Made by a program: the position numbers and the translations under genes. Shown here piece by piece: positions 11,032-23,552 of a DNA stretch of 64,000 nucleotides. The notes below the pieces were generated by a model. The model did no database searches, was not told the DNA's origin, and saw only the letters and a list, made by a program, of their open reading frames with translations. The first letter of the stretch is position 1, and each line of letters opens with the position of its first letter. The DNA lies in assembly GCA_963834265.1 (NCBI GenBank), contig CAWIAU010000001.1, positions 469,523-533,522 on the forward strand, in the 5' to 3' direction. Origin of the DNA: an uncultured bacterium (GTDB lineage: Bacteria; Patescibacteriota; Saccharimonadia; Saccharimonadales; 2-12-FULL-41-12).

Positions 11032-12384
11032 TTAGAGAGAAATTTCGTCGTGTTTATCGTTCGCCGGCGTGGATCCGGCCTGAGGTGCGGGAGTAATATT
11101 GCTGCCTGCCGATGGATTGATGACAGCGGCTTTTTTTTCTTCTGCTGCCAGTAGTGCGTCAAAGTCAGGTTTTTTTGCCGGATCGTTGATCGGTTGGATG
11201 ACTTTTTTGTTACGGTTTGTGTTTTCCTGTTCTGCAGTACTGGGCGTGACAACCTGATCGAGTAAGGCAGTGTCTGTTTCAGCCGCCGAAGCCGATACTT
11301 CAGTTTTGGGCTCTTTTTCGGTTGGTTCTTCAGATGACAATGCTGTTTCGGGACCGGAATTGTTATCTGCGTCTGCTGCTATCAGAGCCTGTTCCAGAGT
11401 CAGACCGGCAGATGGCCGTGGTTCTTCAGCTTTGACTGATGTCTGATCAGTAGCAATAGCAGCCGGCTCAGGTGTTTCTACTATTTCATCGGGTGGAGTT
11501 GGCAGTACAACCCCGGCGGGGGTAGCGGAATCCGAAGTAACTGTGGAGGCAGGTGGCACGGAACTCTCAGTAGTAGTCGGGGGTGTTCTAAGCAATGACT
11601 CTACCGCTGCCAGTTCCGGAGACTTTATCGGCGGCTCTGAAGTTTCCGGAGTTCCGGCAATTGTTGTGTCGGCTTGTTCGACTGGTGCAGCCGGAGCAGC
11701 CACTGTTGTGGTGTCTTCGGATGAAGCCGGAGGAGATGTAGAGGGATCTGTCACAGGAGGCGTCGCCTGAACCGGAGGAGGATCTGCAGCTGATACCGCC
11801 GGAGTATCGACAGGCATAGCAGCAGGAGCTGCAACTGCCGGATCAGTAGCAGAAGGGGGCGGAGCGGTGACCGCAGGAGCGACATCCGGTACCGGAGAAG
11901 TAACAACCGTGGGTGCGGGAGTGGCCGGAGTGACCACAGGGCCCACGGTTGCCGGAGTAGTAATAGCAGGCGGCGCCGGAACTTCTGCGACTTTTTTATT
12001 ACTTTCCTCCTGGCTGTGGCCGTCCAGCACGTCGCGTACTACTTTGGCAACGTCTTCCAGGGTTACCTGGGATTTTACGAGATAACGATCCGCGCCTAGC
12101 TTATCGGCCCTGGCTTTGTCTTCTGCCTGAGACAATGCAGTCATCATAATAACTTTGGTATCTTTAGTTTCGGGTGCGTTGCGAAGGATATCCAGCATGT
12201 CAAATCCGCTGATACGCGGCATCATTACATCTGAAATTATCAGATCGGGCTTTTCTTTAACTGCCAGCGCCAGAGCTTCCTCGCCGTCTTTGGCGGCTAC
12301 AATTTCATGACCCTCTGCCTGCAGTCGGGTTCCGTAAATCTCGCGGAGATTATTATCATCCTCAACCAGCATTATCTTCGACAT
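11032..12384 (-). CDS. Response regulator with a single receiver domain (about 120 aa) followed by a roughly 330-aa low-complexity Pro/Thr/Ala/Val-rich tail; no recognisable output domain
   Basis: IMLVEDDNNLREIY...DLIISDVMMPRISGFDMLDIL...KVIMMTAL is a CheY-like receiver; the rest is PATV-rich. Confidence 0.8.
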   Translation of the reverse strand: MSKIMLVEDDNNLREIYGTRLQAEGHEIVAAKDGEEALALAVKEKPDLIISDVMMPRISGFDMLDILRNAPETKDTKVIMMTALSQAEDKARADKLGADRYLVKSQVTLEDVAKVVRDVLDGHSQEESNKKVAEVPAPPAITTPATVGPVVTPATPAPTVVTSPVPDVAPAVTAPPPSATDPAVAAPAAMPVDTPAVSAADPPPVQATPPVTDPSTSPPASSEDTTTVAAPAAPVEQADTTIAGTPETSEPPIKSPELAAVESLLRTPPTTTESSVPPASTVTSDSATPAGVVLPTPPDEIVETPEPAAIATDQTSVKAEEPRPSAGLTLEQALIAADADNNSGPETALSSEEPTEKEPKTEVSASAAETDTALLDQVVTPSTAEQENTNRNKKVIQPINDPAKKPDFDALLAAEEKKAAVINPSAGSNITPAPQAGSTPANDKHDEISL

Positions 12385-12444: not shown

Positions 12445-13773
12445 TCATACCGAAATAGTCGTTTTTTCACTTAGCTGCATTTGAGCAGCCCTGCCGGCAC
12501 TGAGTCGAGGCAGATTAATGTAGAATGTACTGCCTTTTCCCAGCGTACTTTCAGCCCATATAGTGCCTCCGTATAATTCAACGATTTTACGGCAGATAAA
12601 CAATCCCAGACCGGTTCCGCCAATTGAACGGGTAGCTGAGTTGTCGACCCGATAAAACTTCTGGAACAAATGCGGCAGATCTTCAGCAGGAATACCCGGT
12701 CCGGTATCAGCAAGACGGACCTGGACTACTTCCTGATTGCCGGTAATAGCGAGAGAAAGTTTACCCCTCTCGGTGTATTTAACTGCATTATCAGAAAGAT
12801 TCGTTATAACCTCCCGGAATCGATCGGGATCTATGTGGGCATAGTAAATTGGTGCTACAGCTTTCATGCTGCTTCCCCCGGTGTCACTGGCATCTATAAT
12901 ATTTCCGTCGCCACCTGCAGGATGGGAATTAATGATATATTCCATTTCCAGGCCCTTTTTCTGAGCGCTGAATCGCAGATCTTCAGCAAGTTGCTCAAGG
13001 AAAGCTCCCATATCTGTAACGACCGGATGACTGGTCAGCCGACCATCCTCTGCCTTGGCGCTGGTAAGCAGATCCTGGAATAGCTGGCCTAAGTGCTGGG
13101 TGCTTGTATGTGCCTTCTCCAGAAATTCGCGGCCTTTAGCGTCAACGCTACTAACTTTGTCATTAAGTGCGAGTGCCAGATAGCCTTCAATGGCTGCCAC
13201 CGGCGTACGCATCTCGTGGCTGGCAGTACTAATGAAGTCTGCCCGGCGCTTTTCTTCGTCTTTTTCGCGGCTGACGTCACGGAATACCGCGATAGCACCT
13301 ATAAGTTCATTATTTTTCGGAATGATAACGGGTGAGACTACTAAGGATATAAATACTGCCCTGCCTTTGCGTGTCATCAGCTGGGATGTCTGGCTTATGC
13401 GCTCCCGGGTGGCAAGGACTTTAGTAAACGGATGATCTTCGTCTGATATCGCCACCGGTGTCTGCTCGTCTGTATTCAGCCTCAATACTGCCCGGGCATC
13501 CAGATTCACCGCTTCATCAGCCAGCCATTCGGTCATGTTTGACGCGGCAGTATTGACAATATTGATAGCACAGCCGGTATCGACAGCTATAATCCCATCT
13601 GTAATCGATTGGATAAGTATCTCAGATTGAGCTTCTTTACTGCGCAATGCACCGGTCAGTTGGTTGACCTGCTGTTGTCCTCTGGGCCTGCGATGCTTAG
13701 CCCACCAGAACCAGATAAAACCTGACATCGCCAGAAGTACAACGCCCGCTACAATAAGAAGTGGGATTATCAC
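12445..13773 (-). CDS. Sensor histidine kinase (N-terminal TM helix, PAS-like domain, HisKA, HATPase_c); cognate of the adjacent response regulator
   Basis: H-box FISTASHEMRTPVAAIEGY; G-boxes DTGPGIP and GGTGLGLFICRKIV; N-terminal hydrophobic helix. Confidence 0.88.
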   Translation of the reverse strand: MIIPLLIVAGVVLLAMSGFIWFWWAKHRRPRGQQQVNQLTGALRSKEAQSEILIQSITDGIIAVDTGCAINIVNTAASNMTEWLADEAVNLDARAVLRLNTDEQTPVAISDEDHPFTKVLATRERISQTSQLMTRKGRAVFISLVVSPVIIPKNNELIGAIAVFRDVSREKDEEKRRADFISTASHEMRTPVAAIEGYLALALNDKVSSVDAKGREFLEKAHTSTQHLGQLFQDLLTSAKAEDGRLTSHPVVTDMGAFLEQLAEDLRFSAQKKGLEMEYIINSHPAGGDGNIIDASDTGGSSMKAVAPIYYAHIDPDRFREVITNLSDNAVKYTERGKLSLAITGNQEVVQVRLADTGPGIPAEDLPHLFQKFYRVDNSATRSIGGTGLGLFICRKIVELYGGTIWAESTLGKGSTFYINLPRLSAGRAAQMQLSEKTTISV

Positions 13774-13902
13774 AACCGCACGCAGTTATTTATTAGCATA
13801 ATTACTTTTAAGTATACAACAGATGCGGAACATTTACCGACAGACGAATTAACTGCGTGCTTTCTGATTCTTATCTGTTATGATATGATTTCGAGGCTTA
13901 AG

Positions 13903-13921
13903 TTGGTCCCGTCGTCTAACG
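13903..13921 (+). repeat. 19-nt exact duplicate of the 5' end region of tRNA-Glu (ttggtcccgtcgtctaacg), 160 bp upstream of the intact tRNA
   Basis: Identical to 14082-14100; seen directly. Confidence 0.8.
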
Positions 13922-14083
13922 TGAGAAATGCCTGTGGCACTTCCCAAGGAAAGCTTCCGATGGCAACTTGTTGGCAATAGTGAAGTTTCGGGCCCGCGGA
14001 ACGAGGGTAGGACATCTTAAGCGTTTGGTGATTTGGGTATCATAGATACGCTAAAACTTTAAAATTCACGAAAGTTTAATTTT

Positions 14084-14158
14084 GGTCCCGTCGTCTAACG
14101 GTCAGGACACCAGGTTCTCATCCTGGCAATAGGGGTTCGATTCCCCTCGGGATCACCA
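14084..14158 (+). tRNA. tRNA-Glu (anticodon CUC), 75 nt with encoded CCA
   Basis: Cloverleaf: acceptor GGTCCCG/CGGGATC, D-arm GTCT..GGAC, anticodon stem CCAGG/CCTGG with loop TTCTCAT, T-arm AGGGG-TTCGATT-CCCCT; close to the E. coli tRNA-Glu scaffold. Confidence 0.9.
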
Positions 14159-15779
14159 CAAGAGACTTTGCCTCGTGCAAGGTCTTTTTTGATGACGATA
14201 CTTCTTTGTCTAACAGATGTGCTTCACGAAAAACGTATCCAGTTTTTGTGGTTCCAAATTTCATGTCTGCAAATACGCTTACGCCATTAGGCAAAACCAT
14301 CTTTTGGAACCGTAATCTGTTGTCACCATCTGCAATGTTCCACATACGGGCAGCGTTGGCCATATAGTCGATAGCCATATCAATTACTTTGTTCACGTCT
14401 AGGAACTCCTGCTCAATCTCACTGAGTTCAATCTCCATACTGGTACGTTCTATGGCAATCTTGTCTTTTTGCTCCGCAAGTTCGATGTCGTTAATGGCAC
14501 CACGTCTACACATGTCTATATATTCAGACTTTTGTTTGTCGAGGTCTGTTATATTCTTCTGTGCCATCGTTCGTCTGGCAACAGTTTCTGCGTAGTCAGC
14601 ATTCCACTTGCGAAGGACTATCTCTCTAAAAAGAGAAAGAGAGGCTGGAGAGGGCTGTAAGCCCTCAATTAGCCTCTCGAATGCCTCGTGTAACTCCGTA
14701 CGAGCTAGCGTAAGGTGCTTGTACGTACCTTTCTGCTTTCCCGTACGTCGTACTACGCCTTTGCAGTGCGTACAGTGATAGTACTCGTAGGCACCACCTG
14801 AGCGTCCCTTAGAAAGGCTACCTGTAAGCGTATTACCGCAGTAGCCACATGTTAAAAACCGTCGTAATGTCCACCTGCTTCGATTTTCACCATACGTGTG
14901 TTTCGGTTGGTCGTTATCGCCACGTAGCCTTGATTGTATCTGCCAATACTCGTCGGCGGTGATGAGTGCATTGTGAAAATGTAATCCCACTTGCATGTCA
15001 TCAAGCCCTTTACCACTTACAAAACCCGCATATATGGGGTTTCTGAGCATTGAGTAGACTGTGCTTTGACCAACTGGCTTATCGTACATCTTGCTGTATT
15101 TGCGTTTGCCATTAACAAGGGTTAAGCCTTTTGCTTGTATCTTGTACTTGCTGGCTGCTAGCGTAGAGGCACTGTCATTCAATATCTTGCCTTTAGCGAA
15201 ATCCTTGAGAAAACGCTGGACGTGCTTTGCCATCTCATCAGGTTCAACCGTCGGACGCTTTAAGCTATCTTTGATGTTTCGGTACCCAATCGGTGCTTTA
15301 TGTACCCAGCCGCCTTCCTGTAGCCTTGCTTGCATCCCTTTCGATGAACGCTCAGAGCGAACAGCATTGTCAAACTCAGCAAACGAAGCCAAAATGTGCT
15401 CCATTAGCTTGCCAGACGGTGTGTCCTCGAGTAGCTCAGTAGCAGAGCACAGTCTTATGCCCAACTTCATGAATATATTTACCAGTGCTATGTGGTCCTC
15501 GGTTTTACGAGCGAGCCTATCCAGCTTCCACACAACGACGTACTTGATTTCACCCTTATGTTCCATGCAGTAGCTTATAAGCTCTTTGAGCTGAGTACGG
15601 TCGGCAGTTTTGGCACTTTCACCTTCTTCTATGAAAACCCTTTCAACTGTGGCGTTAAGGCTTTTGGCGACAAAGTCACGACAAGCCTTCTCTTGCATCT
15701 CAAGACTTTTGTTCATCTCGGCTTGCTCTACGGTTGATACTCGTGTGTAAATAACAGCTTTCATGCCTGTCTCCTCCAC
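14118..15779 (-). CDS. Large serine recombinase/integrase (resolvase catalytic domain, recombinase domain, zinc ribbon, coiled-coil). The likely start is at 15764 (MKAVIYTRVS). The 3' end overlaps tRNA-Glu by about 40 nt
   Basis: IYTRVSTVEQ (catalytic Ser region), ...VVVWKLDRLAR..., zinc-ribbon CGYCG...CTHC, 553 aa. Confidence 0.9.
   Translation of the reverse strand: MEETGMKAVIYTRVSTVEQAEMNKSLEMQEKACRDFVAKSLNATVERVFIEEGESAKTADRTQLKELISYCMEHKGEIKYVVVWKLDRLARKTEDHIALVNIFMKLGIRLCSATELLEDTPSGKLMEHILASFAEFDNAVRSERSSKGMQARLQEGGWVHKAPIGYRNIKDSLKRPTVEPDEMAKHVQRFLKDFAKGKILNDSASTLAASKYKIQAKGLTLVNGKRKYSKMYDKPVGQSTVYSMLRNPIYAGFVSGKGLDDMQVGLHFHNALITADEYWQIQSRLRGDNDQPKHTYGENRSRWTLRRFLTCGYCGNTLTGSLSKGRSGGAYEYYHCTHCKGVVRRTGKQKGTYKHLTLARTELHEAFERLIEGLQPSPASLSLFREIVLRKWNADYAETVARRTMAQKNITDLDKQKSEYIDMCRRGAINDIELAEQKDKIAIERTSMEIELSEIEQEFLDVNKVIDMAIDYMANAARMWNIADGDNRLRFQKMVLPNGVSVFADMKFGTTKTGYVFREAHLLDKEVSSSKKTLHEAKSLVVIPRGIEPLLPG
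14164..14190 (+). terminator. Intrinsic terminator after tRNA-Glu (stem gactttgc/gcaaggtc plus T6)
   Basis: Hairpin at 14164-14184 followed by tttttt at 14185-14190. Confidence 0.6.
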
Positions 15780-15806
15780 TTATTGTCGTTATTAAATTGT
15801 TAAAGT

Positions 15807-15992
15807 TCAACCAACCATCGTAGAGTTTGGAACCGATGGCTCCTTTTTGATGCTCTTGATGGTGATTTCCGCCATGAGTTCAAGCTCCAAGATTAGTGCC
15901 TCGACTTCGGCATCAGATAAGCTAGCATACTCTTTCCCAAGTAGTTTCCTAGCTTCCTTTGTTGATATTATTTGCTGTTGCTCGTCTAACAT
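15807..15992 (-). CDS. Small hypothetical protein (61 aa) immediately upstream of the serine recombinase; possible recombination directionality or regulatory factor (speculative)
   Basis: ORF only; position in a recombinase operon. Confidence 0.3.
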   Translation of the reverse strand: MLDEQQQIISTKEARKLLGKEYASLSDAEVEALILELELMAEITIKSIKKEPSVPNSTMVG

Positions 15993-16260
15993 GACAAGAC
16001 GATGATAGGCTCATACGGCATTCCGTTCAGGCAGTCACGAGAAAAAGTACGAGACGTATGCGACACGACCTCGCCTAGCAATAGTTCAAATACGGTTTGT
16101 TACGGTTTGTCTCGGTCAATACCTAAAAGAATGTCAGCCATTTCAGTACTAACTCGTATGGGATTTATTAACTCTACTTCGTCTTTGCCAATACGCTTAA
16201 AAAATATATCTTTGAGCAGTTTACTAAAACCACACTGTCTCAAAGTCTCTGATATGTCAT

Positions 16261-16693
16261 CTAGATCTTGCAAGCCGCGTCAACGTCTCTTTTGAGTTCC
16301 GCCAGCTTCACAAGAGAACCAGGACGATTGTTAATGATGTAGCTGGTCAGCAGGTCAGGTTGTAGCCCCGCTCTCAAACGTTTAATATGACGCTTTTTTT
16401 CACCAACTACCAACCATAAGTTAAGCCCATCTTTCATCAGGCGAACCTCAATATCCTTTTGATGACTGGCAGCAGCAGGTGTGGTACGGGGGCTTGAGCT
16501 TTCGTTCAAGTTCAGCGTAGATTACGTCAAACTTGTCTGAGAGCCTAAGCTCAACCGCATCTTCCATCATCGCATCATAATCAAAAATATCTGGGGCACG
16601 ACGTGGTATCGGGTCTACTTTAACAACGGTGAAGTCAAGGTCAAAATTAACAGGCACATTTGCTCTCACCGAATTGGCCATACGCCATATCAT
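16261..16693 (-). pseudogene. Disrupted gene of unknown function (two overlapping reading frames, 82 and 81 aa, with an open upstream extension)
   Basis: Two frames overlap at 16448-16509; the upstream frame continues without a start. Confidence 0.4.
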
Positions 16694-16833
16694 TTCGCGA
16701 GATATTGTTTGCGATACAGCACCAAGCGGTGTTTCACCATTATGCAGGATTAAACCGCTTAATTCTAATCGGTCCTTCTGGAGCTTCTACGTTTTCAATG
16801 ATGATTTTAGTGCGTGTTGCAGGGTTGATGTAG

Positions 16834-17052
16834 TTATACTGCCGATTTTTCGGCAACTGGGCTATCGCTGATACTAGGTCGGACGCTGTAATTTGCATAT
16901 TCGTTATTATTACTTTCTAAGAAGTATAATAGCGTATCTGCTATGCCTTTTGAAAGCACAAAGGGTACTCCGTTGCCAATCATTTTGAACTTTGCACTCA
17001 AGCTAACGGTTGGCGGCAGTTCAAACTCCTTTGGTAATGACTGGAGAGACAT
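16834..17052 (-). pseudogene. C-terminal fragment of a DNA (cytosine-5) methyltransferase (motifs IX-X only)
   Basis: LQSLPKEFELP...KMIGNGVPFVLSKGIADTLL matches the C5-MTase C-terminal motif (RLQGFPDDF...IGNAV); the N-terminal catalytic motifs are absent and the upstream space is occupied by the recombinase fragment. Confidence 0.65.
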
Positions 17053-17141
17053 CGCTTCGGCAACACTTATCCGTCTTGGAAGATAGGGGTGCAGATGAAC
17101 CTCATTATTGCCATATGCACAGGGTGGGCGAATATCTCCAT

Positions 17142-17940
17142 CTATGTAAACTTGGAGACACGCAATAGGTCGGACTTATATGATTTAACCAGTGTAGTTA
17201 CAAAAGTATGCCGAAAACCATGAATAGTCTTTTCAATCTCAAGCTCTGTCAACAATTCTTTTACGACATACCGCAGTCCTCGTGTTGTTAATCGACTGCC
17301 TTTTGTTTTGCCCCAAAGTGATGTGAATAGGGGTAATGCTTCGTCTCGCACCTGTGAGCTGCGTAGATACGCCCTGATGGCTTTGGTCGCCCTCGGGGTG
17401 GAGACAGATGTATTGTTTGCTGTCTCTGCCTTTTCCTAGCACTTGAACACGACCAGAAGCTAGGTCAACATCACCGATGTCCAACCGTACTATTTCTATT
17501 TGCCGAAGCCCTTGATACAGCAGCAATGCTACCACTGCCCGTAAGCGTAGTATCTTGAAACTGTCTGATTGCTCACGAAGGTGCTGACATACCATCTCCG
17601 CTTCCTGCTCCGTCAGACCCTCAACTTTGTGTTGAAGTGTTTGCTGGAACGACTTGACACCCAAGCTCAGGTCAATCGAGATTGCTCCACGCCTATACAG
17701 TTCCTTGAGTGCTATACGGGCAACTGCTAAGTATTTATTCTTGGCGGCAATACCGAAATCTGTTCGGCTACGCAGATATTTCTTATACTCCAGCAATGAA
17801 TTACGGTTGATGCCGTTACGGTGGAGAAAACCCGCAAATTGTGGCAGCCGTGCCAAGTAATCCTGCTTAGTGCTTTCGGCTATGTCCATATCATCAAACA
17901 GTGTCGGTGTGCCAATAACAGATAGAAAATTACTCATCAC
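17142..17940 (-). pseudogene. Tyrosine recombinase (XerC/D or phage-integrase family), frameshifted and C-terminally truncated
   Basis: N-terminal part 17239-17940 has the box I region LRLRAVVALLLYQGLRQIEIVRLDIGDVDL...VLGKGRDSK. The C-terminal HGFRHTFVT motif (HxxRH) is in another frame at 17142-17351. No catalytic Tyr segment was found. Confidence 0.7.
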
Positions 17941-18533
17941 TTGCTCCTTTCAACTGACGGAGCTTGGCAACATACCTATCATCGCCACTATCGGGTTCAA
18001 CCTTGCTGTATTCATCGAACCAGAGCTTATGGCGAAAGTCTATCTCGTCCTGTGTGCCATCTTGCCAGTTTCCAAGCATCTTACGACCTCGCTTTGTATG
18101 AAAATCTAAGCTGAACTCGGGGATTTGCAGCAACTTACCACCAGTGTGTTCGGTGCGTATCAGGTTTACTAAGCTATCGGCTTCACGGGTCTTAATCGCC
18201 CTGCACAGGTAAATGATTGCCTGAAACAGGAACACCAGAGCATCGTTTTTCTTTCGATTTATGCCTGTGATTGCAATCTGGTAGTTACTCAGTAGAGAGC
18301 TAACCAGTATTGCGGCATCTGGCGTTGCATTGCCTATGTCCTCACTTGCGATTATTAGCACCCGTTTCCATACGTATTTGTGATAGCCGCTTTCGTGAAT
18401 TATAAGATGCCCAGTAACAGGCTTCGTACTCTAGATTACGTCTGATACATTTCTGCAAGGCACTCGCTACTTCGTCGAACGTATAGTCGTTAATTAGTTT
18501 AATTTCATAGGGTTTTGATGATGCTGTTGCCAT
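17930..18533 (-). pseudogene. Fragment corresponding to the C-terminal (MgsA_C) domain of a RarA/MgsA recombination ATPase. It is split over two frames and lacks the AAA+ domain
   Basis: DEVASALQKCIRRNLEYEACYWA (compare SALHKSIRGSDPDAALYW) in 18342-18533, and LIIASEDIGNATPDAA...ALVFLFQAIIYLCRAIKT (compare RRLVIIASEDIGLADP...LAQAVIYLA.APKSN) in 17930-18361. Confidence 0.6.
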
Positions 18534-18794
18534 TTACTTGTCTCCTTTGGCTCAAGCTCATCTTCGCAGGTAAAAACAGGGGTGACAACCGCTATTTTTG
18601 TGAAGTTTTGTGAATATTAAGGTACTGGCTGTTCGGGAGCTTTTGATTGCTGACTTTGCTCTTGTTGCTTCTGACGTTCATAACGCATAATCGTCAGTTT
18701 CTCCATAGACTTGACAGCTTTATCCAGTTGCTCACGTTCTTCATCTGACAATGGCTTTGTCTCGTCTTCTATTACGTGAGTAAAAGCTTTCGGT

Positions 18795-19112
18795 TCAGCC
18801 CAGCCATATATAACTTGAAACAGTAGCTTCTGAGCGACCAAACGAGCCTTTAAGGGCAGAATTGACCACCGCCATTGTGATAACGTCAGTGTGAACTGCC
18901 AATCTGGCACGGTCTCGCTCAAACAGCTTTTCAAAGTCCATCTCTTGGAAATGTTTATTTACTGTCTCACGGCTAATACCAGTGAGCTTGGCAATCTCGT
19001 CTTGAGTTGGGGACTTTTGAGAAGTCTTATAGTGCGTCAGGATTGCGTTACTAATCCTGCGGTGGTTATCTTCCCAGTCGAGCCTTTTGTCTTTTGGAGA
19101 GTTTTGAGACAT
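18795..19112 (-). CDS. Helix-turn-helix DNA-binding regulator (about 106 aa from the internal Met at 19112). It is possibly fused by a frameshift to the overlapping downstream ORF 18617-18934. It is divergently transcribed from the cargo operon
   Basis: SPTQDEIAKLTGISRETVNKHFQEM is a typical HTH; AAAGGG RBS upstream of the 19112 start; a 140-nt two-frame overlap with 18617-18934 suggests a frameshift. Confidence 0.55.
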   Translation of the reverse strand: MSQNSPKDKRLDWEDNHRRISNAILTHYKTSQKSPTQDEIAKLTGISRETVNKHFQEMDFEKLFERDRARLAVHTDVITMAVVNSALKGSFGRSEATVSSYIWLG

Positions 19113-19229
19113 CAACAACCCTTTAGTTAATTGGTATTGTCTTGTCTCCGTTAGATATATTTTACCATAACCACATCTGTTAATATACCTATTTGTTATA
19201 GTTTCAGCACCAGTTAAGAGGAGTAGGAT

Positions 19230-19430
19230 ATGGACATAAAACCTGCTGATATTGCAGATATGCAAAAGCTATATAAAAAACACTTCGGCATTGAGTTAGA
19301 CTACGATACTGCCTACCGTAAACTAACGATGCTCGTGCGACAAATGGAGTTAGTCTATCAACCAATAACCAAAAAACAAGCTGATGCAATTCACGGTAGT
19401 GATGAGGAAGCAAAAAAGCATAAGGATTAA
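19230..19430 (+). CDS. Small hypothetical protein (66 aa), first gene of the cargo operon
   Basis: Strong RBS GAGGAGTAGGAT before the ATG; no recognisable motif. Confidence 0.5.
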   Translation: MDIKPADIADMQKLYKKHFGIELDYDTAYRKLTMLVRQMELVYQPITKKQADAIHGSDEEAKKHKD

Positions 19431-19458
19431 CAGGGGTAGAAATGATATAATAAGGAGT

Positions 19459-19924
19459 ATGAACTTTGAATTACTAGGCTGGTTGGTAGCGGCGGGAACA
19501 CTGGCTTTTACCGTTTATACCCATTTCGATAAGAAAAAGAGCCAAAAGGTTAAATTAAAAGTCACGTTTCAGAATGGAATGCTGACATTTCACGGTGGCG
19601 AGCTGAGCGAGGCGATGTTGTTTATCAAAAGCTGCGAACATTGGAAATAAAGCAGTTACTATCAATACACCCCATATAAATGTAAAACACAACGACGGCG
19701 GTTCACTATTTACCGAGTTCGGTTCGTACCAACGATTACCGTACGTACTCGAGCCAGGAGACAGTGTGGTTGCGTGGCACGAGATAAAGCCAATTGCCCA
19801 AGCTCTAAAAGGGCACGGGCTAACGGGCAAGATTAAATTAGAAGGCTATTTTACTAGCCAAGTCGGTGATGAGTATAAAGCTAAAGCCTACACCCTGGAC
19901 GTAGACGACTGGTCTAAGGATTAA
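19459..19924 (+). pseudogene. Frameshifted gene. The N-terminal part (19459-19650, 63 aa, one TM helix, AAGGAG RBS) continues in the +1 frame (about 19607-19924, no in-frame ATG) as a beta-rich domain. The shift is probably within the A4 homopolymer near 19627-19630 (assembly error, programmed +1 frameshift, or decay)
   Basis: The second frame is open from 19607 to a TAA at 19922-19924 and encodes about 105 aa (...GSLFTEFGSYQRLPYVLEPGDSVVAWHEIKPIAQALKGHGLTGKIKLEGYF...) with no ATG, GTG or TTG start before residue 50; it ends 4 nt before the next ATG. Confidence 0.5.
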
Positions 19925-19928
19925 CACT

Positions 19929-21176
19929 ATGCCGATTGTCGGTGGCCAAATGTATGCAGAAGCCAGAGAGCAATTACGCAACTTCAACGAGCTGAATGTA
20001 CTTATACTTGGTTCAAGCACGAGAGAGATTGTAGCATTTCTGGAACAACTCAGCACGATGCACGTATACATCAATCAAACTCTGGGAACTAATGTAGGCA
20101 TAAAAGTTCACTGCACTGGTGCTTTTGATAGCAGAATTGCCCAACACTTTGGCTTAACGGTCCGTTCGCTGTCCGATATAAACGAGACTTCAACAAAAGA
20201 GCTTGTTCAAGCTGCCGACATTGACGTTATCTTCGACCAAGACAATGTATTGAGCAAACGGTACGCCCAGGATAATTTCTATGCCTTTCAGACTGTGAAT
20301 AGACTGACCGAGCTAGTTGCTTCCTGTGAAGACTTCTTAGTAGGAAATGACATCGCTTGGCTCTTTTCAAACATTACGTGGAACTTGCCCCTATTTATGC
20401 GTTACTTTGACCGCCCTGGGTTGTGTAGGGACTATTTTATGTTTATGGGCGAATGTACGGGCACTCACGGTTATACTAGCGACCAACAAGATAAAGTCAG
20501 GTACATCGCTAACCGCCTCGGGCAAATCGAGTATTCAAAAGACATCATACAGTCCTATATCAAGCGTATGCGTAAGGCAAAGCGTAATGGTTACTCGGAG
20601 CAAGATTTTGGTCTAGAGCTGAACTATCATCTTGGAAACTACTACTTCCTGATTGCTGGAGTTCTGGATAGTATGGCAAGGCTGTTGAATAACGTCTTGA
20701 AACTAGAACTAAACCGTCACCAGCTAGCACTTGAAAAAGAGGATTTTATTAACGCCAACAGGCGTAAAAGAACTGGCCTCGTCCGCATACTCACCAAAAG
20801 AGAGTTCACAGATTGGCAAAGCTTTTTAAAAGAACGCCGACACTTTATAGCCCACGAAGGTGATATGAGACAAAGCCCCCTCGTCGAGCAAAACGATGTA
20901 CTGCTAACTAACGACGAGGTAGAGAGACTGGTTGATGCCCAGAGCGACTGGACATATATGGCAACATTCACCACACGAGAAGTTATCCAAGCATTACGAG
21001 CTCAATCGGCTCAGATGGTTCGTATACAGCACGATTACAAAACAGTTGCTGAGTACGCAATGATAGTACCGAACGCCAACGGTACTAAGATATTCCAGCC
21101 CTTGAGGAGTATTGAGTATGACTATGACCAACTTGCTGACGTAATGACTAAGTTCCTGGCTAGATTAAAGGGCTGA
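19929..21176 (+). CDS. Hypothetical 415-aa cargo protein with a Rossmann-like N-terminal domain and a C-terminal R-x4-H (HEPN-like) motif (KERRHFIAHEG); candidate RNase or abortive-infection effector (hypothesis)
   Basis: Alternating beta-alpha pattern NVLILGSST...MHVYINQ...GIKVHCTGAF...DIDVIFDQD in the first roughly 120 aa; RRHFIAH motif at about residue 305; located on the integrated element as the last gene of an operon. Confidence 0.55.
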   Translation: MPIVGGQMYAEAREQLRNFNELNVLILGSSTREIVAFLEQLSTMHVYINQTLGTNVGIKVHCTGAFDSRIAQHFGLTVRSLSDINETSTKELVQAADIDVIFDQDNVLSKRYAQDNFYAFQTVNRLTELVASCEDFLVGNDIAWLFSNITWNLPLFMRYFDRPGLCRDYFMFMGECTGTHGYTSDQQDKVRYIANRLGQIEYSKDIIQSYIKRMRKAKRNGYSEQDFGLELNYHLGNYYFLIAGVLDSMARLLNNVLKLELNRHQLALEKEDFINANRRKRTGLVRILTKREFTDWQSFLKERRHFIAHEGDMRQSPLVEQNDVLLTNDEVERLVDAQSDWTYMATFTTREVIQALRAQSAQMVRIQHDYKTVAEYAMIVPNANGTKIFQPLRSIEYDYDQLADVMTKFLARLKG

Positions 21177-21365
21177 TTGATAGGTTCCATTCTATACCTG
21201 CACTAATGCACGTACTTTCTTCACTGATGTCGTATCTAGCACGTCGTGCCAGGAGACTAGTTCCTTCTTGAGTAGGTTCCAATTCTTTATCTCGTAGTTC
21301 ACCAGGAAAATGGACCGCGTTTTTTGTGGTCTGTTTTCATGTTAATTGTTGATAGAGAATCGAAC

Positions 21366-21388
21366 GGGAATGTTCGGTGAACATTCCC
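21366..21388. repeat. Perfect 10-bp inverted repeat with a 3-nt spacer (gggaatgttc ggt gaacattccc), about 60 bp inside the attR-like end of the element
   Basis: Seen directly; nested with cgaac...gttcg. Confidence 0.7.
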
Positions 21389-21444
21389 CGCCCGCCGCTC
21401 CAAAGGAGTTGCCTTAGCAAAAGTAATTTTCTTTTGCGGCAAGG

Positions 21445-21464
21445 TCGATTCCCCCGGATCACCA
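21445..21464 (+). repeat. Imperfect direct repeat of the tRNA-Glu 3' end (attR-like remnant)
   Basis: tcgattcccccggatcacca versus tRNA 14138-14158 tcgattcccctcgggatcacca (20 of 22). Confidence 0.7.
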
Positions 21465-21465
21465 A

Positions 21466-22191
21466 TTATTTGCTTTGCAAAGTTTTGTTAAACCACTTTA
21501 GGATAGTATTTTGCAGGGTTTCTTTCCACCTGGGCTCAGTCAGGGTGTGCGGAGCCCCCTCGATCACATATAGCTGCTTCTTGTCCGCTTGCATGGCGGC
21601 GTTTATGTAGGCTTTGGGGATAGATAACGGAATGAGCGCGTCATTTTCTGAGGCCACCACTAGTAAGCTACCGTTGAAATTACGGATAGCATTGCCGGCA
21701 GGTGTAGCTTCTAAATCTCCTATCTGATGAAATTGTCTATTTTCATTAACCATCGTTTCTGCCATGCTAAGCCGCATCATTTCGGCAGTGTAAGCCGCAG
21801 GGGCACGAAACACAATGCTCCGTATAAGTCGTTTGTCAGATACCATAGCTGCGAGGATTGCTCCAACACTTGACCCGACAAGACCTATGCTGGTGGCATC
21901 TACTTCGGGTTGGCTGACTAGAAAATCGTATGCGGCTAAAGCATCGCTAATGGCTTCTGCAACCGTAGACCTTTCAAAGTCTCCTTCGCTTTCGCCATGG
22001 CCACGCATACTGATAGCAAGCCCTGCAATTCCCTGCTCTGCTAAACTTTGAGTTAGAGTTATATAGCTGTTCTCGGAACTCGTCATTCCATGAAAAATAA
22101 TTACACCCGGACAAGGTTTTTTGACCGCTGGCGGTATAGCAAGGGTGCCATGAATTGTCAGGCTATCACTCAAAAATGTTACTTCCTGCAT
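21466..22191 (-). CDS. Alpha/beta hydrolase (dienelactone hydrolase or S9-like serine hydrolase fold)
   Basis: Nucleophile elbow LVGSSVGA (GxSxG) and the motif GHGESEG; 241 aa. Confidence 0.75.
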   Translation of the reverse strand: MQEVTFLSDSLTIHGTLAIPPAVKKPCPGVIIFHGMTSSENSYITLTQSLAEQGIAGLAISMRGHGESEGDFERSTVAEAISDALAAYDFLVSQPEVDATSIGLVGSSVGAILAAMVSDKRLIRSIVFRAPAAYTAEMMRLSMAETMVNENRQFHQIGDLEATPAGNAIRNFNGSLLVVASENDALIPLSIPKAYINAAMQADKKQLYVIEGAPHTLTEPRWKETLQNTILKWFNKTLQSK

Positions 22192-22262
22192 TGTCCCAGT
22201 ATACTAAAGAAAGCTTCACTAGTGCTTGAGGAGTAATTAGCGAAGCTGCCTTCCTTTTAATT

Positions 22263-23552
22263 CTAGACACGGTTCAGAAGAAGTTCAAAATATTTGCTGC
22301 CACCGAAAGCGGGGATTTTCTGACGCACAATCCCCTTGCCTTCCAGTGAATTGAGCGAATGGACCATGAACAGATCGTAGCGTTCATTTATCTCATCAAC
22401 TGCTTCGGTCAGCCATTCCTGCTTGTTTTCTGTATCGAACAGGCTGGCCTGAGCCCTGCGCGTTGGCGTAATCTGATAGCAGGTCACTCCTATGGTAGTT
22501 ACTTTAGCTTTAGGACGCTGGTTGAATAGATACAGAGCTCTTTCATAAACTTCGCGGTCGGTATAAAAACTGGTTTTGTGCATTTTGCGAACCTGCCAGT
22601 ACTCATTGCCTTCCAGGACCAGCCAGACTAACATGCCGCGGGCATCCACACCTTGGTAGCGCAACTTCCGGCCAACAGTTTCACACAGGTATTGGAACCG
22701 GGGCAGGATTACCGAACTGTCATCGGTTCGCTGGTCCATTACGTATTGCCGGCCGACATGACCTAGTTTGGTTATATTATCGTCCGTTTCCCAGCCGCGC
22801 AGTCGCTGGTACCAGTCATCGCCGATCACGCTATGAAATACTTGCCGCCGTAGAGTATCCGAGCTAGCGCTAAGGAATTCCAGCGGGGTGAAGATACCGG
22901 CGGCGTTCAGCCGAGCTTCATAGTGTCGGGCGATACCGCTGATATCCGTAAGTTGCATTGAGGCATAAACATCATTCAGATTCTTATGATCTATAACGTC
23001 CAGGCCGTCCGGCTTATGCAGGCCGGCGGCGGTTTTGGCCAGGAATCTGTTGGGACCGATACCGATATTGACCCGCATCCACTTACCTATCTCACTTTTC
23101 AGACGCTGTTTGATCTCAATGCCGATATCCGGAAGAGGCCGCTTGTTGAGAGTGGAGCGGGTACTGTGAAAGTCGATTATGCCCTCGTCTATACTCTTCA
23201 TTTTGACATCCGGCGAATAGCTCTTCATGATCGCACACAATTTTTGATATACATGGTGGTACTTTGGCGGATCAGACTCCAGCATCATAAAATTCGGGAT
23301 AATCATGCGTGCCTCAATCAGTCCCATCCCCACTTTTATGCCCAGGGCCTTTGCTTCGTATGACGCGGCAATTACACAGCAGTTTCTGGACAGGCGGTTA
23401 GTCACGCCTATTGGCCGGCCACGAAGGCTCGTTCTGGCTTGTTGTTCAATGGTGGCAAAAGCAGAGTTCAGGTCAATATGCATGATAAGTGGCTCTTCCT
23501 GGTTGAATCCGAGTTCTCCCCACCTTGCCTGCGCGGCAATATAGCTTTTCAT
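22263..23552 (-). CDS. Y-family DNA polymerase (DinB/UmuC-like translesion polymerase)
   Basis: IMHIDLNSAFATIE (compare IIHVDMDCFFAAVE), ...SIDEGIIDF..., ...IGIGPNRFLAKTAAGLHKPDG (compare KFLAKIASDMNKPNG). Confidence 0.88.
   Translation of the reverse strand: MKSYIAAQARWGELGFNQEEPLIMHIDLNSAFATIEQQARTSLRGRPIGVTNRLSRNCCVIAASYEAKALGIKVGMGLIEARMIIPNFMMLESDPPKYHHVYQKLCAIMKSYSPDVKMKSIDEGIIDFHSTRSTLNKRPLPDIGIEIKQRLKSEIGKWMRVNIGIGPNRFLAKTAAGLHKPDGLDVIDHKNLNDVYASMQLTDISGIARHYEARLNAAGIFTPLEFLSASSDTLRRQVFHSVIGDDWYQRLRGWETDDNITKLGHVGRQYVMDQRTDDSSVILPRFQYLCETVGRKLRYQGVDARGMLVWLVLEGNEYWQVRKMHKTSFYTDREVYERALYLFNQRPKAKVTTIGVTCYQITPTRRAQASLFDTENKQEWLTEAVDEINERYDLFMVHSLNSLEGKGIVRQKIPAFGGSKYFELLLNRV

Follow-up and report, generated by a model that had tools for sequence, protein, structure and literature searches.

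A degraded mobile element is found beside a tRNA-Glu(CTC) gene in the 64,000 nt of DNA analysed here (the window; contig CAWIAU010000001.1, assembly GCA_963834265.1, positions 469,523 to 533,522), which come from an uncultured bacterium of the Saccharimonadales. The reading put forward, held with somewhat better than even confidence, is that this is a degraded member of a family of small "defence islands" whose large serine recombinase (LSR) targets the 3′ ends of tRNA genes and carries the attachment site of the free element, attP, within its own gene. The tRNA gene (14084–14158, forward strand; found by ARAGORN and by Rfam with 61.9 bits) is the integration target; it would form the B arm of the empty chromosomal site, attB, and now lies in the left junction, attL. 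The first-pass annotation had described an integrated, decayed mobile element at this tRNA, and the comparisons support that description. The behaviour of the family is the point of interest, the window copy being an ordinary decaying island. The LSR family is large and apparently undescribed. A wider proposal, which could equally well be right or wrong, is that a large clade of LSRs, which numbers hundreds of proteins from Saccharibacteria/Patescibacteria and further metagenomic lineages, integrates specifically at tRNA 3′ ends by way of an attP in its own gene. Integration would reversibly replace a 36-residue C-terminus by a tail that the tRNA encodes, and would give the tRNA a new terminator.

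The large serine recombinase and its tie to tRNA genes

The integrated form of the LSR gene is found at 14118–15779 on the complementary strand and codes for 553 aa from a GTG start, or 548 aa from an ATG at 15764. Its last 41 nt lie inside the tRNA gene. The final 13 codons and the stop are antisense tRNA, with the stop codon TGA falling on anticodon-loop positions 35–37. An intact 553-aa LSR with about 13 codons inside the tRNA had been noted before, and this is confirmed by the open reading frame, the domains and the homologue alignment. The protein aligns over its full length with 22 homologues, and the catalytic S15 and four zinc-ribbon cysteines are invariant. Residues 8–158 match PF00239 (E-value = 1e-34), with Y11, R13 and S15 invariant in 23 sequences. 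PF07508 is matched with 25.5 bits (cut-off 21.1), whereas PF13408 gives 22.7 bits, just under its cut-off of 25.3, with C311, C314, C336 and C339 conserved. The comparison with the PHROG 95 integrase gives an E-value of 6e-76. Against NCBIfam the protein scores far below the thresholds of all named equivalogs, XisF and CcrA/B/C among them. The window protein is a bona fide LSR that falls outside any named equivalog.

Directly 3′ of the tRNA, positions 14159–14191 (forward strand) form a hairpin followed by T6, an element-borne terminator for the tRNA (−15.4 kcal/mol, z = −3.95). Antisense to it the same nucleotides code for the LSR residues ...KKTLHEAKSLV, part of a KKT..S.LV motif that is conserved in the homologue alignment. 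All 22 aligned homologues (38–65% identity) end in ...KKTQ..SES.VVIPRGIEP.LPG, which corresponds to the antisense of a T-run terminator plus the tRNA acceptor and T-arm. An antisense T-loop motif is present in the tail of 97 of 117 full-length homologues, and several of the others show different antisense-tRNA tails. At the level of loci, an antisense tRNA overlaps the LSR stop in 28 of 54 metagenomic loci, most commonly by 41 nt with the stop at tRNA positions 35–37; 7 further contigs end within 33 nt of the LSR stop. The overlapped tRNAs are mostly Glu, but Val, Ala, Ile, Arg, Lys and Met tRNAs are found as well. Past the tRNA, host genes follow closely: a pyruvate kinase gene lies 112 nt away in locus L086, and a response regulator, a histidine kinase and GluRS are found in L084. 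In L098, a provirus contig of IMG/VR, the gene of a distant LSR (31% identity) runs antisense through a whole tRNA-Arg(CCG) gene at 11469–11563.

Two recombinase genes are found in the island, and the remnant of a tyrosine recombinase had been considered as the source of the tRNA junction. This is contradicted by the family-wide overlap of LSR and tRNA, which is present also where there is no tyrosine recombinase: the 6-kb element L013 carries an LSR and AbiEi/AbiEii but lacks such an enzyme. L090 has integrated at tRNA-Lys(CTT), with an LSR that shares only 27% identity with that of the window, yet the L090 tyrosine recombinase is 76% identical to that of L091, which in turn matches the window remnant at 69–85%. 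Closely related tyrosine recombinases thus occur with unrelated LSRs at different tRNAs, and therefore target choice follows the LSR. From these comparisons the LSR, not the tyrosine recombinase, appears as the tRNA integrase. A conserved 61-aa protein is encoded directly upstream of the LSR (15807–15992, complementary strand) and has homologues beside the LSR in L004, L054 and L084–L088; it may be an accessory or directionality factor.

The probable far boundary and the proposed displaced LSR tail

A minority of the homologues do not have the antisense-tRNA end (P0034, P0118, P0032, P0029, P0073 and P0064; loci L020, L027 and L037). In these unsplit proteins the S.LV motif is followed by a peptide of about 30 aa with the pattern ..NW..IKKEL..W... 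The same tail peptide is found detached, at the far end of the element and on the LSR strand, in the window (21302–21195), L004 (3483–3563), L086 (165–272), L091 and L092; the P0034 tail finds the window copy with a tblastn E-value of 1e-6. Detached pieces start with TGGT(G/A)(A/C)AC, 13 nt and GAATTGGAAC, and the same form is present inside the unsplit genes. In the window this displaced LSR 3′ end spans 21195–21304 of the complementary strand and consists of a P half-site, TGGTGA-13 nt-GAATTGGAACC, and 36 codons, VNYEIKNWNLLKKELVSWHDVLDTTSVKKVRALVQV, ending in a stop. The attL side instead reads TGGTGA, 9 nt, GAATCGAACC, which is the real tRNA. The segment had also been considered as non-coding or as an independent small gene, where its identity of 76% (nt) and about 69% (aa) was ambiguous; it was assigned as an LSR tail because it is homologous to the C-termini of unsplit LSRs.

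Joining the two gene parts at TGGTGA gives stop-free open reading frames of 572 aa (window), 554 aa (L004) and 567 aa (L086). The reconstructed window protein reads ...KSLVV up to the junction and NYEIKNWNLLKKELVSWHDVLDTTSVKKVRALVQV after it, followed by a stop codon. All three reconstructed frames align in register with the natural unsplit proteins and keep the spacing LV-6 aa-W. The P half-site motif occurs 8 times in the 0.87 Mb of sequence fetched, always in this context. Gene parts at opposite ends of the element are, on this computational evidence, present in five elements.

The window and L086 share a block of 125 nt (76% identity) that ends exactly with ...TTCACCA at position 21304. 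The proposed crossover core TCACCA (TGGTGA on the LSR strand) would thus be found at 14153–14158 in attL and at 21299–21304 in the right junction, attR, both on the forward strand, the conservation with L086 ending exactly at the latter. After this pseudo-CCA end a strong hairpin with a T-rich tail follows at 21305–21340 (forward strand; −18.7 kcal/mol, z = −4.27), which is proposed as the original host terminator of tRNA-Glu, in the B′ arm. Terminators are found directly after the pseudo-CCA end in L004 (−26 kcal/mol) and L091 (−33 kcal/mol) also. The far boundary of the island is probably the TCACCA at 21299–21304, on sequence comparison, and an island bounded in this way covers 14159–21304, or 7146 bp. 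In L004 no clear host genes are recognized by Pfam beyond the far end. A tRNA-like fragment (tRNA positions 10–59, with an Ala-type anticodon arm and no acceptor ends) is seen just outside the proposed attR of L086, at 60–108.

These features suggest the following scheme, in which the place of the crossover, the mechanism of gene splitting and the mobility of the element are all inferred. In the free form the LSR gene would have about 572 codons, with attP inside the gene some 36 codons ahead of the stop. The P half-site (TGGTGA-13 nt-GAATTGGAACC) would imitate the T-arm and acceptor end as read antisense in the tRNA (TGGTGA-9 nt-GAATCGAACC). Crossover would occur within TGGTGA, that is TCACCA, the discriminator and CCA end of tRNA-Glu. 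The predicted attP lies around CTCTTGTGGTGAACTACGAGATAAAGAATTGGAACC (longer form, AAGTCTCTTGTGGTGAACTACGAGATAAAGAATTGG) and the predicted empty attB is CCCCTCGGGATCACCAGGAAAATGGACCGCGTTTTTT. After integration the whole tRNA would remain host-encoded, and the element would bring a new terminator hairpin that doubles as the LSR codons KKT..SLV. The integrated LSR body would run 13 codons into the antisense tRNA and stop at the anticodon loop, while the last 36 codons would be moved to the other end of the element (21304–21195), beside the displaced original terminator of the tRNA. The tail swap may give the enzyme an inbuilt means of sensing whether the element is integrated or excised, and so bias directionality. 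In the P arm, 4–5 bp more separate the core from the T-loop-like motif than in the B arm, and attP and attB half-sites of serine integrases show a spacing difference of this kind.

The tail modules could also be the 3′ stubs of a second LSR, of the unsplit type, left behind from a former tandem element. Tandem accretion is common at tRNA sites, L013 shows arrays of att relics, and unsplit LSRs with such a tail do exist in integrated regions. Five independent elements, however, have a module that starts at the same TGGTnnAC on the LSR strand with an open frame of 29–36 codons, whereas identical break points are not expected from random deletion. In all five, unrelated and terminator-like DNA directly precedes the module, and phase and spacing match the break point of the resident LSR itself. 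The stub explanation is improbable, and a tail displaced from the resident LSR is preferred.

Copies of the tRNA 3′ end

Positions 54–75 of the tRNA recur in degenerate form, with two 1-nt deletions, at 21445–21464 (forward strand), where the sequence is TCGATTCCCC-C-GGATCACCA. It matches tRNA nucleotides 14137–14158 at 20 of 22 bases with two single-base gaps. The first-pass annotation had pointed out this direct repeat. The copy is real, although its counterpart in the tRNA begins at 14137 and not, as given, at 14138. The concern that a 20/22 match could arise by chance has a divided answer. A whole-window test on both strands is weak (score 32; 1 of 30 shuffles reached 33) and so marginal, whereas the directed, a-priori test of the last 25 nt of the tRNA against the 10 kb downstream on the same strand is clear, with none of 1000 dinucleotide shuffles reaching 32 (maximum 30).

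The repeat had been taken as the end of the element. By that explanation the island is 14159–21444 and crossover took place in the T-loop, by either recombinase; the element re-supplies tRNA positions 54–75, and the tail open reading frame and terminator (21195–21340) are internal features. The T-loop junctions predicted would be GCGGCAAGGTCGATTCCCCTCGGGATCACCACAAGAGAC (attP) and GGGGTTCGATTCCCCCGGATCACCAATTATTTGC (attB). The significance of the repeat in the directed test (0/1000 shuffles) favours this, as do the weakly tRNA-like stretch just left of the repeat and the fact that a junction rebuilt there remains in frame with the tail. Exact copies of a tRNA 3′ end in L013 point the same way, since they start at positions 55/56, have their own terminators and lie on the LSR side of the tRNA. 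Yet the frame through the repeat junction contains two stop codons, and the repeat itself carries two deletions. Conservation between the window and L086 stops at 21304, and 21305–21444 cannot be aligned to any related element. The strong terminator right after the pseudo-CCA end at 21304 is what host DNA would be expected to show, and joining at TGGTGA gives a stop-free open reading frame with the natural spacing of unsplit LSRs in three elements. Serine integrases are not known to require or create long duplications. T-loop crossover with the repeat as attR was once the working model, and was downgraded because the tail module, the conservation boundary and the terminator were found. It is now judged unlikely, if the most credible of the alternatives considered. 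As the element end, the TCACCA at 21299–21304 is better supported than the repeat, which lies 140 nt outside it.

With the boundary at TCACCA, the repeat at 21445–21464 is probably a relic of an earlier event, outside the present element. The stretch that holds it also carries a perfect 10-bp inverted repeat and other att-like scraps. The inverted repeat (21359–21381, GGGAATGTTC-GGT-GAACATTCCC) has the proposed attR on one side and the tRNA 3′ relic on the other, and adjoins an antisense T-loop-like GAATCGAAC motif. In L013 (reverse complement, approximately 15840–16200) the last 20–21 nt of tRNA-Glu(TTC) are present three times in tandem as exact copies. A terminator hairpin follows every copy, and T-arm fragments in inverted orientation lie among them. 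The array looks like a set of att relics and suggests that relics accumulate at such sites. Earlier elements with T-loop crossover may be one origin of the relics.

Several observations weigh against a crossover at the CCA end with attP inside the LSR gene. The main weakness is that the 20–22 nt copies of the tRNA 3′ end in L013 and the window start in the T-loop, and such copies fit T-loop crossover better than crossover at the CCA end. In L086 the pseudo-CCA end is not followed by a clear terminator. The argument from attP/attB spacing leans on the half-site geometry known for serine integrases. Tail modules are found only in the five loci whose LSRs are nearest to that of the window, and none is present in the distant tRNA-associated loci that have a 10-kb flank (L006, L012, L013, L016, L055 and L077). 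Unsplit LSRs are also found in chromosomal mobile regions, e.g. L027. Unsplit therefore does not simply equal excised, and these proteins may belong to a sister lineage with its attP elsewhere. No excised circle or attP junction was seen in the sequences compared, and a search of viral contigs for an excised unsplit close relative gave only LSRs of 31% identity or less. Finally, an exact empty site was not found among the relatives, the nearest having 76% DinB identity and lacking the hydrolase that follows the island in the window.

Backbone, cargo and decay of the window copy

Intact relatives of the island (L084–L093) were recovered by exact-sequence and homology look-ups; L084 and L085 are NCBI assemblies GCA_013694995 and GCA_020063845, and L090 is a 714-kb JGI contig. 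Along the direction of LSR transcription, the relatives show variable cargo, a MgsA_C protein (199–218 aa), a Xer-like tyrosine recombinase (about 298 aa), a restriction-modification (R-M) slot, small proteins including one of 61–63 aa, the LSR and the antisense tRNA. The MgsA_C protein, tyrosine recombinase, R-M slot, small proteins and LSR are collinear in the intact elements L084, L086, L089, L090, L091 and L092. In L084, L086, L089 and L090 the R-M slot is occupied by a type III Mod/Res pair, an assignment that was confirmed; in L091 and L092 it contains a C5 methyltransferase of type II together with an endonuclease of the HNH or NmeDI-like kind.

Assembly of the island by successive integrations had been suggested, that is a tyrosine-integrase element which left the tRNA repeat, followed by an unrelated serine-recombinase element. 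Two recombinase genes do lie within one island, repeats from T-loop to 3′ end are typical of tyrosine integrases (PMC4383910), and the 21445–21464 relic could come from an earlier tyrosine-integrase element that has been lost. The collinearity of the whole backbone argues against this history: in six intact relatives the MgsA_C/tyrosine recombinase pair is placed identically with respect to the LSR, and only the R-M slot varies. Furthermore, the tyrosine recombinase is Xer-like and sits in mid-element, far from both ends, close tyrosine recombinases are found at different tRNAs, and LSR-only elements have the same tRNA junction. A composite origin is very unlikely. From gene order the window island appears as one element with a conserved backbone, not two.

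The MgsA_C protein and the Xer-like recombinase form an overlapping gene pair immediately upstream of the resident R-M system, both in L084–L092 and in the window (17145–18533). The pair may serve in resolution of circle dimers or in cassette exchange, both of which are guesses. In the window both genes, on the complementary strand, are pseudogenes. The tyrosine recombinase (17145–17937) is split by a frameshift near 17392–17396: aa 1–182 are encoded at 17937–17392 and aa 181–262, in another frame, at 17396–17145. The C-terminal 36 aa (263–298), with the catalytic Tyr segment, are deleted, as had been proposed before. The deletion junction at about 17145–17150 fuses codon 262 of the recombinase to codon 323 of the methyltransferase. 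The recombinase is about 3 kb from the nearer element end, is Xer-like by NCBIfam, and does not represent a functional tyrosine integrase. The MgsA_C gene (17933–18533) has a frameshift at 18403–18408 and 90% aa identity to intact 199-aa proteins. It had been annotated as a C-terminal fragment of RarA in two frames; the frameshift stands, but the gene is a standalone backbone MgsA_C gene of about 200 aa and not a RarA fragment.

The type II R-M system is incomplete in the window. Of the C5 cytosine methyltransferase (16837–17127, complementary strand; 96% aa identity) aa 323–419 of 419 remain, which agrees with the fragment first described. The NmeDI-like type II restriction endonuclease (16640–16874, complementary strand) is reduced to aa 1–78 of 345 with one frameshift, and has 94–98% aa identity to L092. 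Over the interval 17149–16640 the nt identity to L092 is 88%. A 229/244-aa backbone protein is represented by an N-terminally truncated and frameshifted remnant (16148–16452, complementary strand). This remnant, the endonuclease and the 154-aa gene below extend the list of decayed genes beyond those first reported.

The HTH regulator and the 415-aa cargo protein reported earlier are both present. The HTH protein has 105 aa from ATG (18795–19112, complementary strand); its open reading frame ends at 18795 and overlaps an open frame at 18617–18934, and the gene may be frameshifted too, continuing in that frame. A conserved 66-aa backbone protein (19230–19430, forward strand) has homologues in L084, L086, L089 and L090. 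It is followed on the same strand by a 154-aa cargo gene (19459–19924), frameshifted near 19640 at a short A-run, and by the 415-aa protein (19929–21176), which is HEPN_Cthe2314-like with 27.1 bits, exactly at the Pfam cut-off. PADLOC and PHROG give no match for the HEPN, 154-aa, 66-aa and 61-aa proteins.

In total the window copy has two internal deletions and at least five frameshifts, with the LSR body and tail still open. The frameshifts and oddities could be assembly errors in an intact element or in core genome. One case agrees with this: the frameshift near 19640 is absent from the Logan contig of ERR12037361, in which the 154-aa gene is intact and the neighbouring proteins are identical to those of the window. 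This indel is polymorphic or an assembly error, and to that extent the earlier view of real decay has to be qualified. For the rest, deletions of about 1 kb took most of the methyltransferase, the restriction enzyme and the recombinase C-terminus, and 4 of 5 frameshift sites inspected are away from homopolymer runs. The flanking genes are uninterrupted and the interval is absent from relatives. The decay is held to be largely real because kilobase-scale deletions of the R-M genes and the recombinase C-terminus cannot be sequencing errors; assembly error as a general explanation is hardly credible. The window copy is probably decaying in place. A total lack of frameshifts elsewhere in the window had been claimed; by spot check only, at least six long flanking genes align without interruption to relatives.

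The tRNA–DinB interval in related genomes

By the DinB orthologue the nearest genomes are two Candidatus Saccharibacteria metagenome-assembled genomes, L001 (76% identity) and L002 (65%). Both show synteny with the window to the left of 13785 and to the right of 22266. In L001 a histidine kinase, tRNA-Glu(CTC) and DinB are directly adjacent, with both the island and the hydrolase missing; in L002 the tRNA and DinB are separated by 5.2 kb of unrelated genes. The interval between tRNA and DinB is a variable spot because it is empty-like in L001 and filled with unrelated genes in L002, and from these comparisons 13786–22262, apart from the tRNA, appears specific to the lineage of the window. The empty site had been predicted to show the tRNA followed directly by the hydrolase, an arrangement that was not found in these relatives. 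The island is absent from this site in both relatives, which are distant (65–76% DinB identity), and the hydrolase is absent from L001 as well.

BLAST of 13774–13904, 13922–14083, 21305–21444 and 21465–21700 against all loci gave no match, and in an Rfam scan of 13500–22300 the tRNA alone was matched. The histidine kinase beside the tRNA (12445–13785) is about 145 N-terminal residues short compared with the L001 and L002 orthologues (582–583 aa), and the missing part is not present elsewhere within the window.

Comparison with known systems

The window LSR has the same resolvase, recombinase and zinc-ribbon architecture as the enzymes of phiC31, Bxb1, A118, SPbeta (SprA) and SCCmec (CcrAB). 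As in LSR elements of the phiC31 kind, the integrase gene is at the element edge and there appears to be a short crossover core without long duplication. The proposed attP half-site is likewise longer than that of attB. The conserved gene at whose 3′ end insertion takes place stays intact, as rlmH does with SCCmec. Unlike phiC31-type elements, the family of the window targets a tRNA gene, attP apparently lies inside the integrase open reading frame, such that integration swaps the C-terminus of the enzyme, and integrase coding sequence doubles as a tRNA terminator. A 2020 survey states that serine integrases were "not known for targeting tRNA genes"; among 297 it predicts 14 cases, "requiring experimental proof" (PMC7192596).

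The "suicidal" archaeal tyrosine integrases of SSV1, pTN3 and pT26-2 have attP in the integrase gene, and integration at a tRNA partitions the gene; self-splitting integrase genes are stated for archaea and tyrosine recombinases only (PMC8371274). The window element resembles the SSV type in having attP, as proposed, inside the integrase gene and gene parts at both ends. It differs in that the SSV-type enzyme is a Phage_integr_3 tyrosine recombinase of an archaeal host, whereas the window enzyme is a serine recombinase in Saccharibacteria. The window LSR also loses a 36-aa tail only and keeps an open, conserved body of 540 aa, and to judge from its sequence is probably not "suicidal".

Tycheposons of Prochlorococcus are small cargo-carrying elements at tRNA genes as well, and a minority of them, 27 of 937, have an LSR in place of the tyrosine enzyme (10.1101/2020.12.28.424599). 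The passages of that paper on the serine recombinase report no overlap or splitting of the recombinase gene. Unlike tycheposons, the window island and L084–L092 have no primase, helicase or polymerase domains, and the host phylum is another one. With Islander-type tRNA islands the window island shares a tRNA at one end with the integrase beside it (here the LSR gene, 41 nt of which lie in the tRNA), a cargo of defence and R-M genes, relics of tRNA fragments in the vicinity and absence from relatives. It differs from them in that the recombinase next to the tRNA belongs to the serine class, the tyrosine recombinase of the island lies internally and is Xer-like, and the proposed junction duplicates only about 6 bp. 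As for a displaced tRNA fragment at the other end, the fragment at 21445–21464 exists and probably lies 140 nt outside the element, and the proposed junction shares TCACCA alone.

Small serine recombinases of the phiRSM type integrate at the 3′ end of a tRNA gene. Unlike the window LSR, they are small resolvase-like (S-Core) enzymes of filamentous phages, without the recombinase and zinc-ribbon domains. They form a small clade of serine recombinases that serve integrative elements as site-specific integrases (cited in PMC7192596). No description of tRNA-overlapping or self-splitting serine integrases was found in the full-text literature, subscription journals being outside this scope.

If the proposed scheme is true, this would be the first serine-recombinase, and the first bacterial, counterpart of the archaeal "suicidal" integrases, and the self-splitting arrangement would have evolved convergently. 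It would also offer a tractable system for asking whether a change of C-terminus on integration controls directionality. Serine integrases are valued genome-engineering tools, and the present work points to a whole clade with conserved, predictable attB sites in tRNA genes and compact, readable attP sites. Patescibacteria have tiny genomes with few described mobile elements. The family looks like a main vehicle for the exchange of R-M, Abi and HEPN defence genes among them.

Fragments of the tRNA 5′ end

An exact 19-nt copy consisting of TT and tRNA-Glu positions 1–17 is found upstream of the tRNA at 13903–13921 (forward strand; 0/1000 shuffles), at the left end of what seems a separate insertion. 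The 162-nt spacer between this fragment and the tRNA (13922–14083, forward strand) has conserved hairpins with compensatory changes and no Rfam match. L004 has a homologous 5′ fragment and a 216-nt spacer (16722–16985) at a tRNA-Glu(CTC) with no LSR beside it. Both spacers start with TGAGAAATGC and have common hairpins supported by compensatory base changes. This suggests that the 5′ fragment and spacer are not part of the island and look like a second type of insertion, at tRNA 5′ halves. A model in which the element carries its own complete tRNA and split the host tRNA into the 13905 and 21445 fragments was rejected, because host core genes in L084 and L086 start 110–150 nt upstream of the tRNA and because the L004 homologue of the 5′ fragment and spacer sits at an LSR-less tRNA-Glu. 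A scan of viral contigs for the spacer motif gave 4 matches, all of them chance matches in coding DNA.

Similar arrangements are seen at other tRNA genes. In L014 (2473–2694, reverse complement) and L090 (18451–18638), LSR-overlapped tRNA-Lys(CTT) genes have an exact 18-nt copy of their 5′ end 93–127 nt upstream, which ends after the first G of the D-loop GG, like that of the window. An exact copy of tRNA-Glu positions 1–40 with a strong hairpin is found in L006 (20096–20135), 8.5 kb upstream of an LSR-associated tRNA (11466–11540); hypothetical genes, a NUMOD4 protein and a methyltransferase lie between copy and tRNA, and a type I R-M system is present on the LSR side. Within the window, 47603–47626 shows a 23-nt likeness to the anticodon arm and variable region of tRNA-Glu (local score 30), which is possibly due to chance. 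In L011 (reverse complement, 585–966), tRNA-Glu positions 1–22 are repeated 285 nt upstream of the tRNA, the duplicated part ending in the D-loop here too. The L011 spacer contains two strong hairpins and an open reading frame of about 85 aa, GIY-YIG-like by eye, the final codons of which run into the second copy of the tRNA 5′ end. This suggests a homing-endonuclease cassette that restores its tRNA target.

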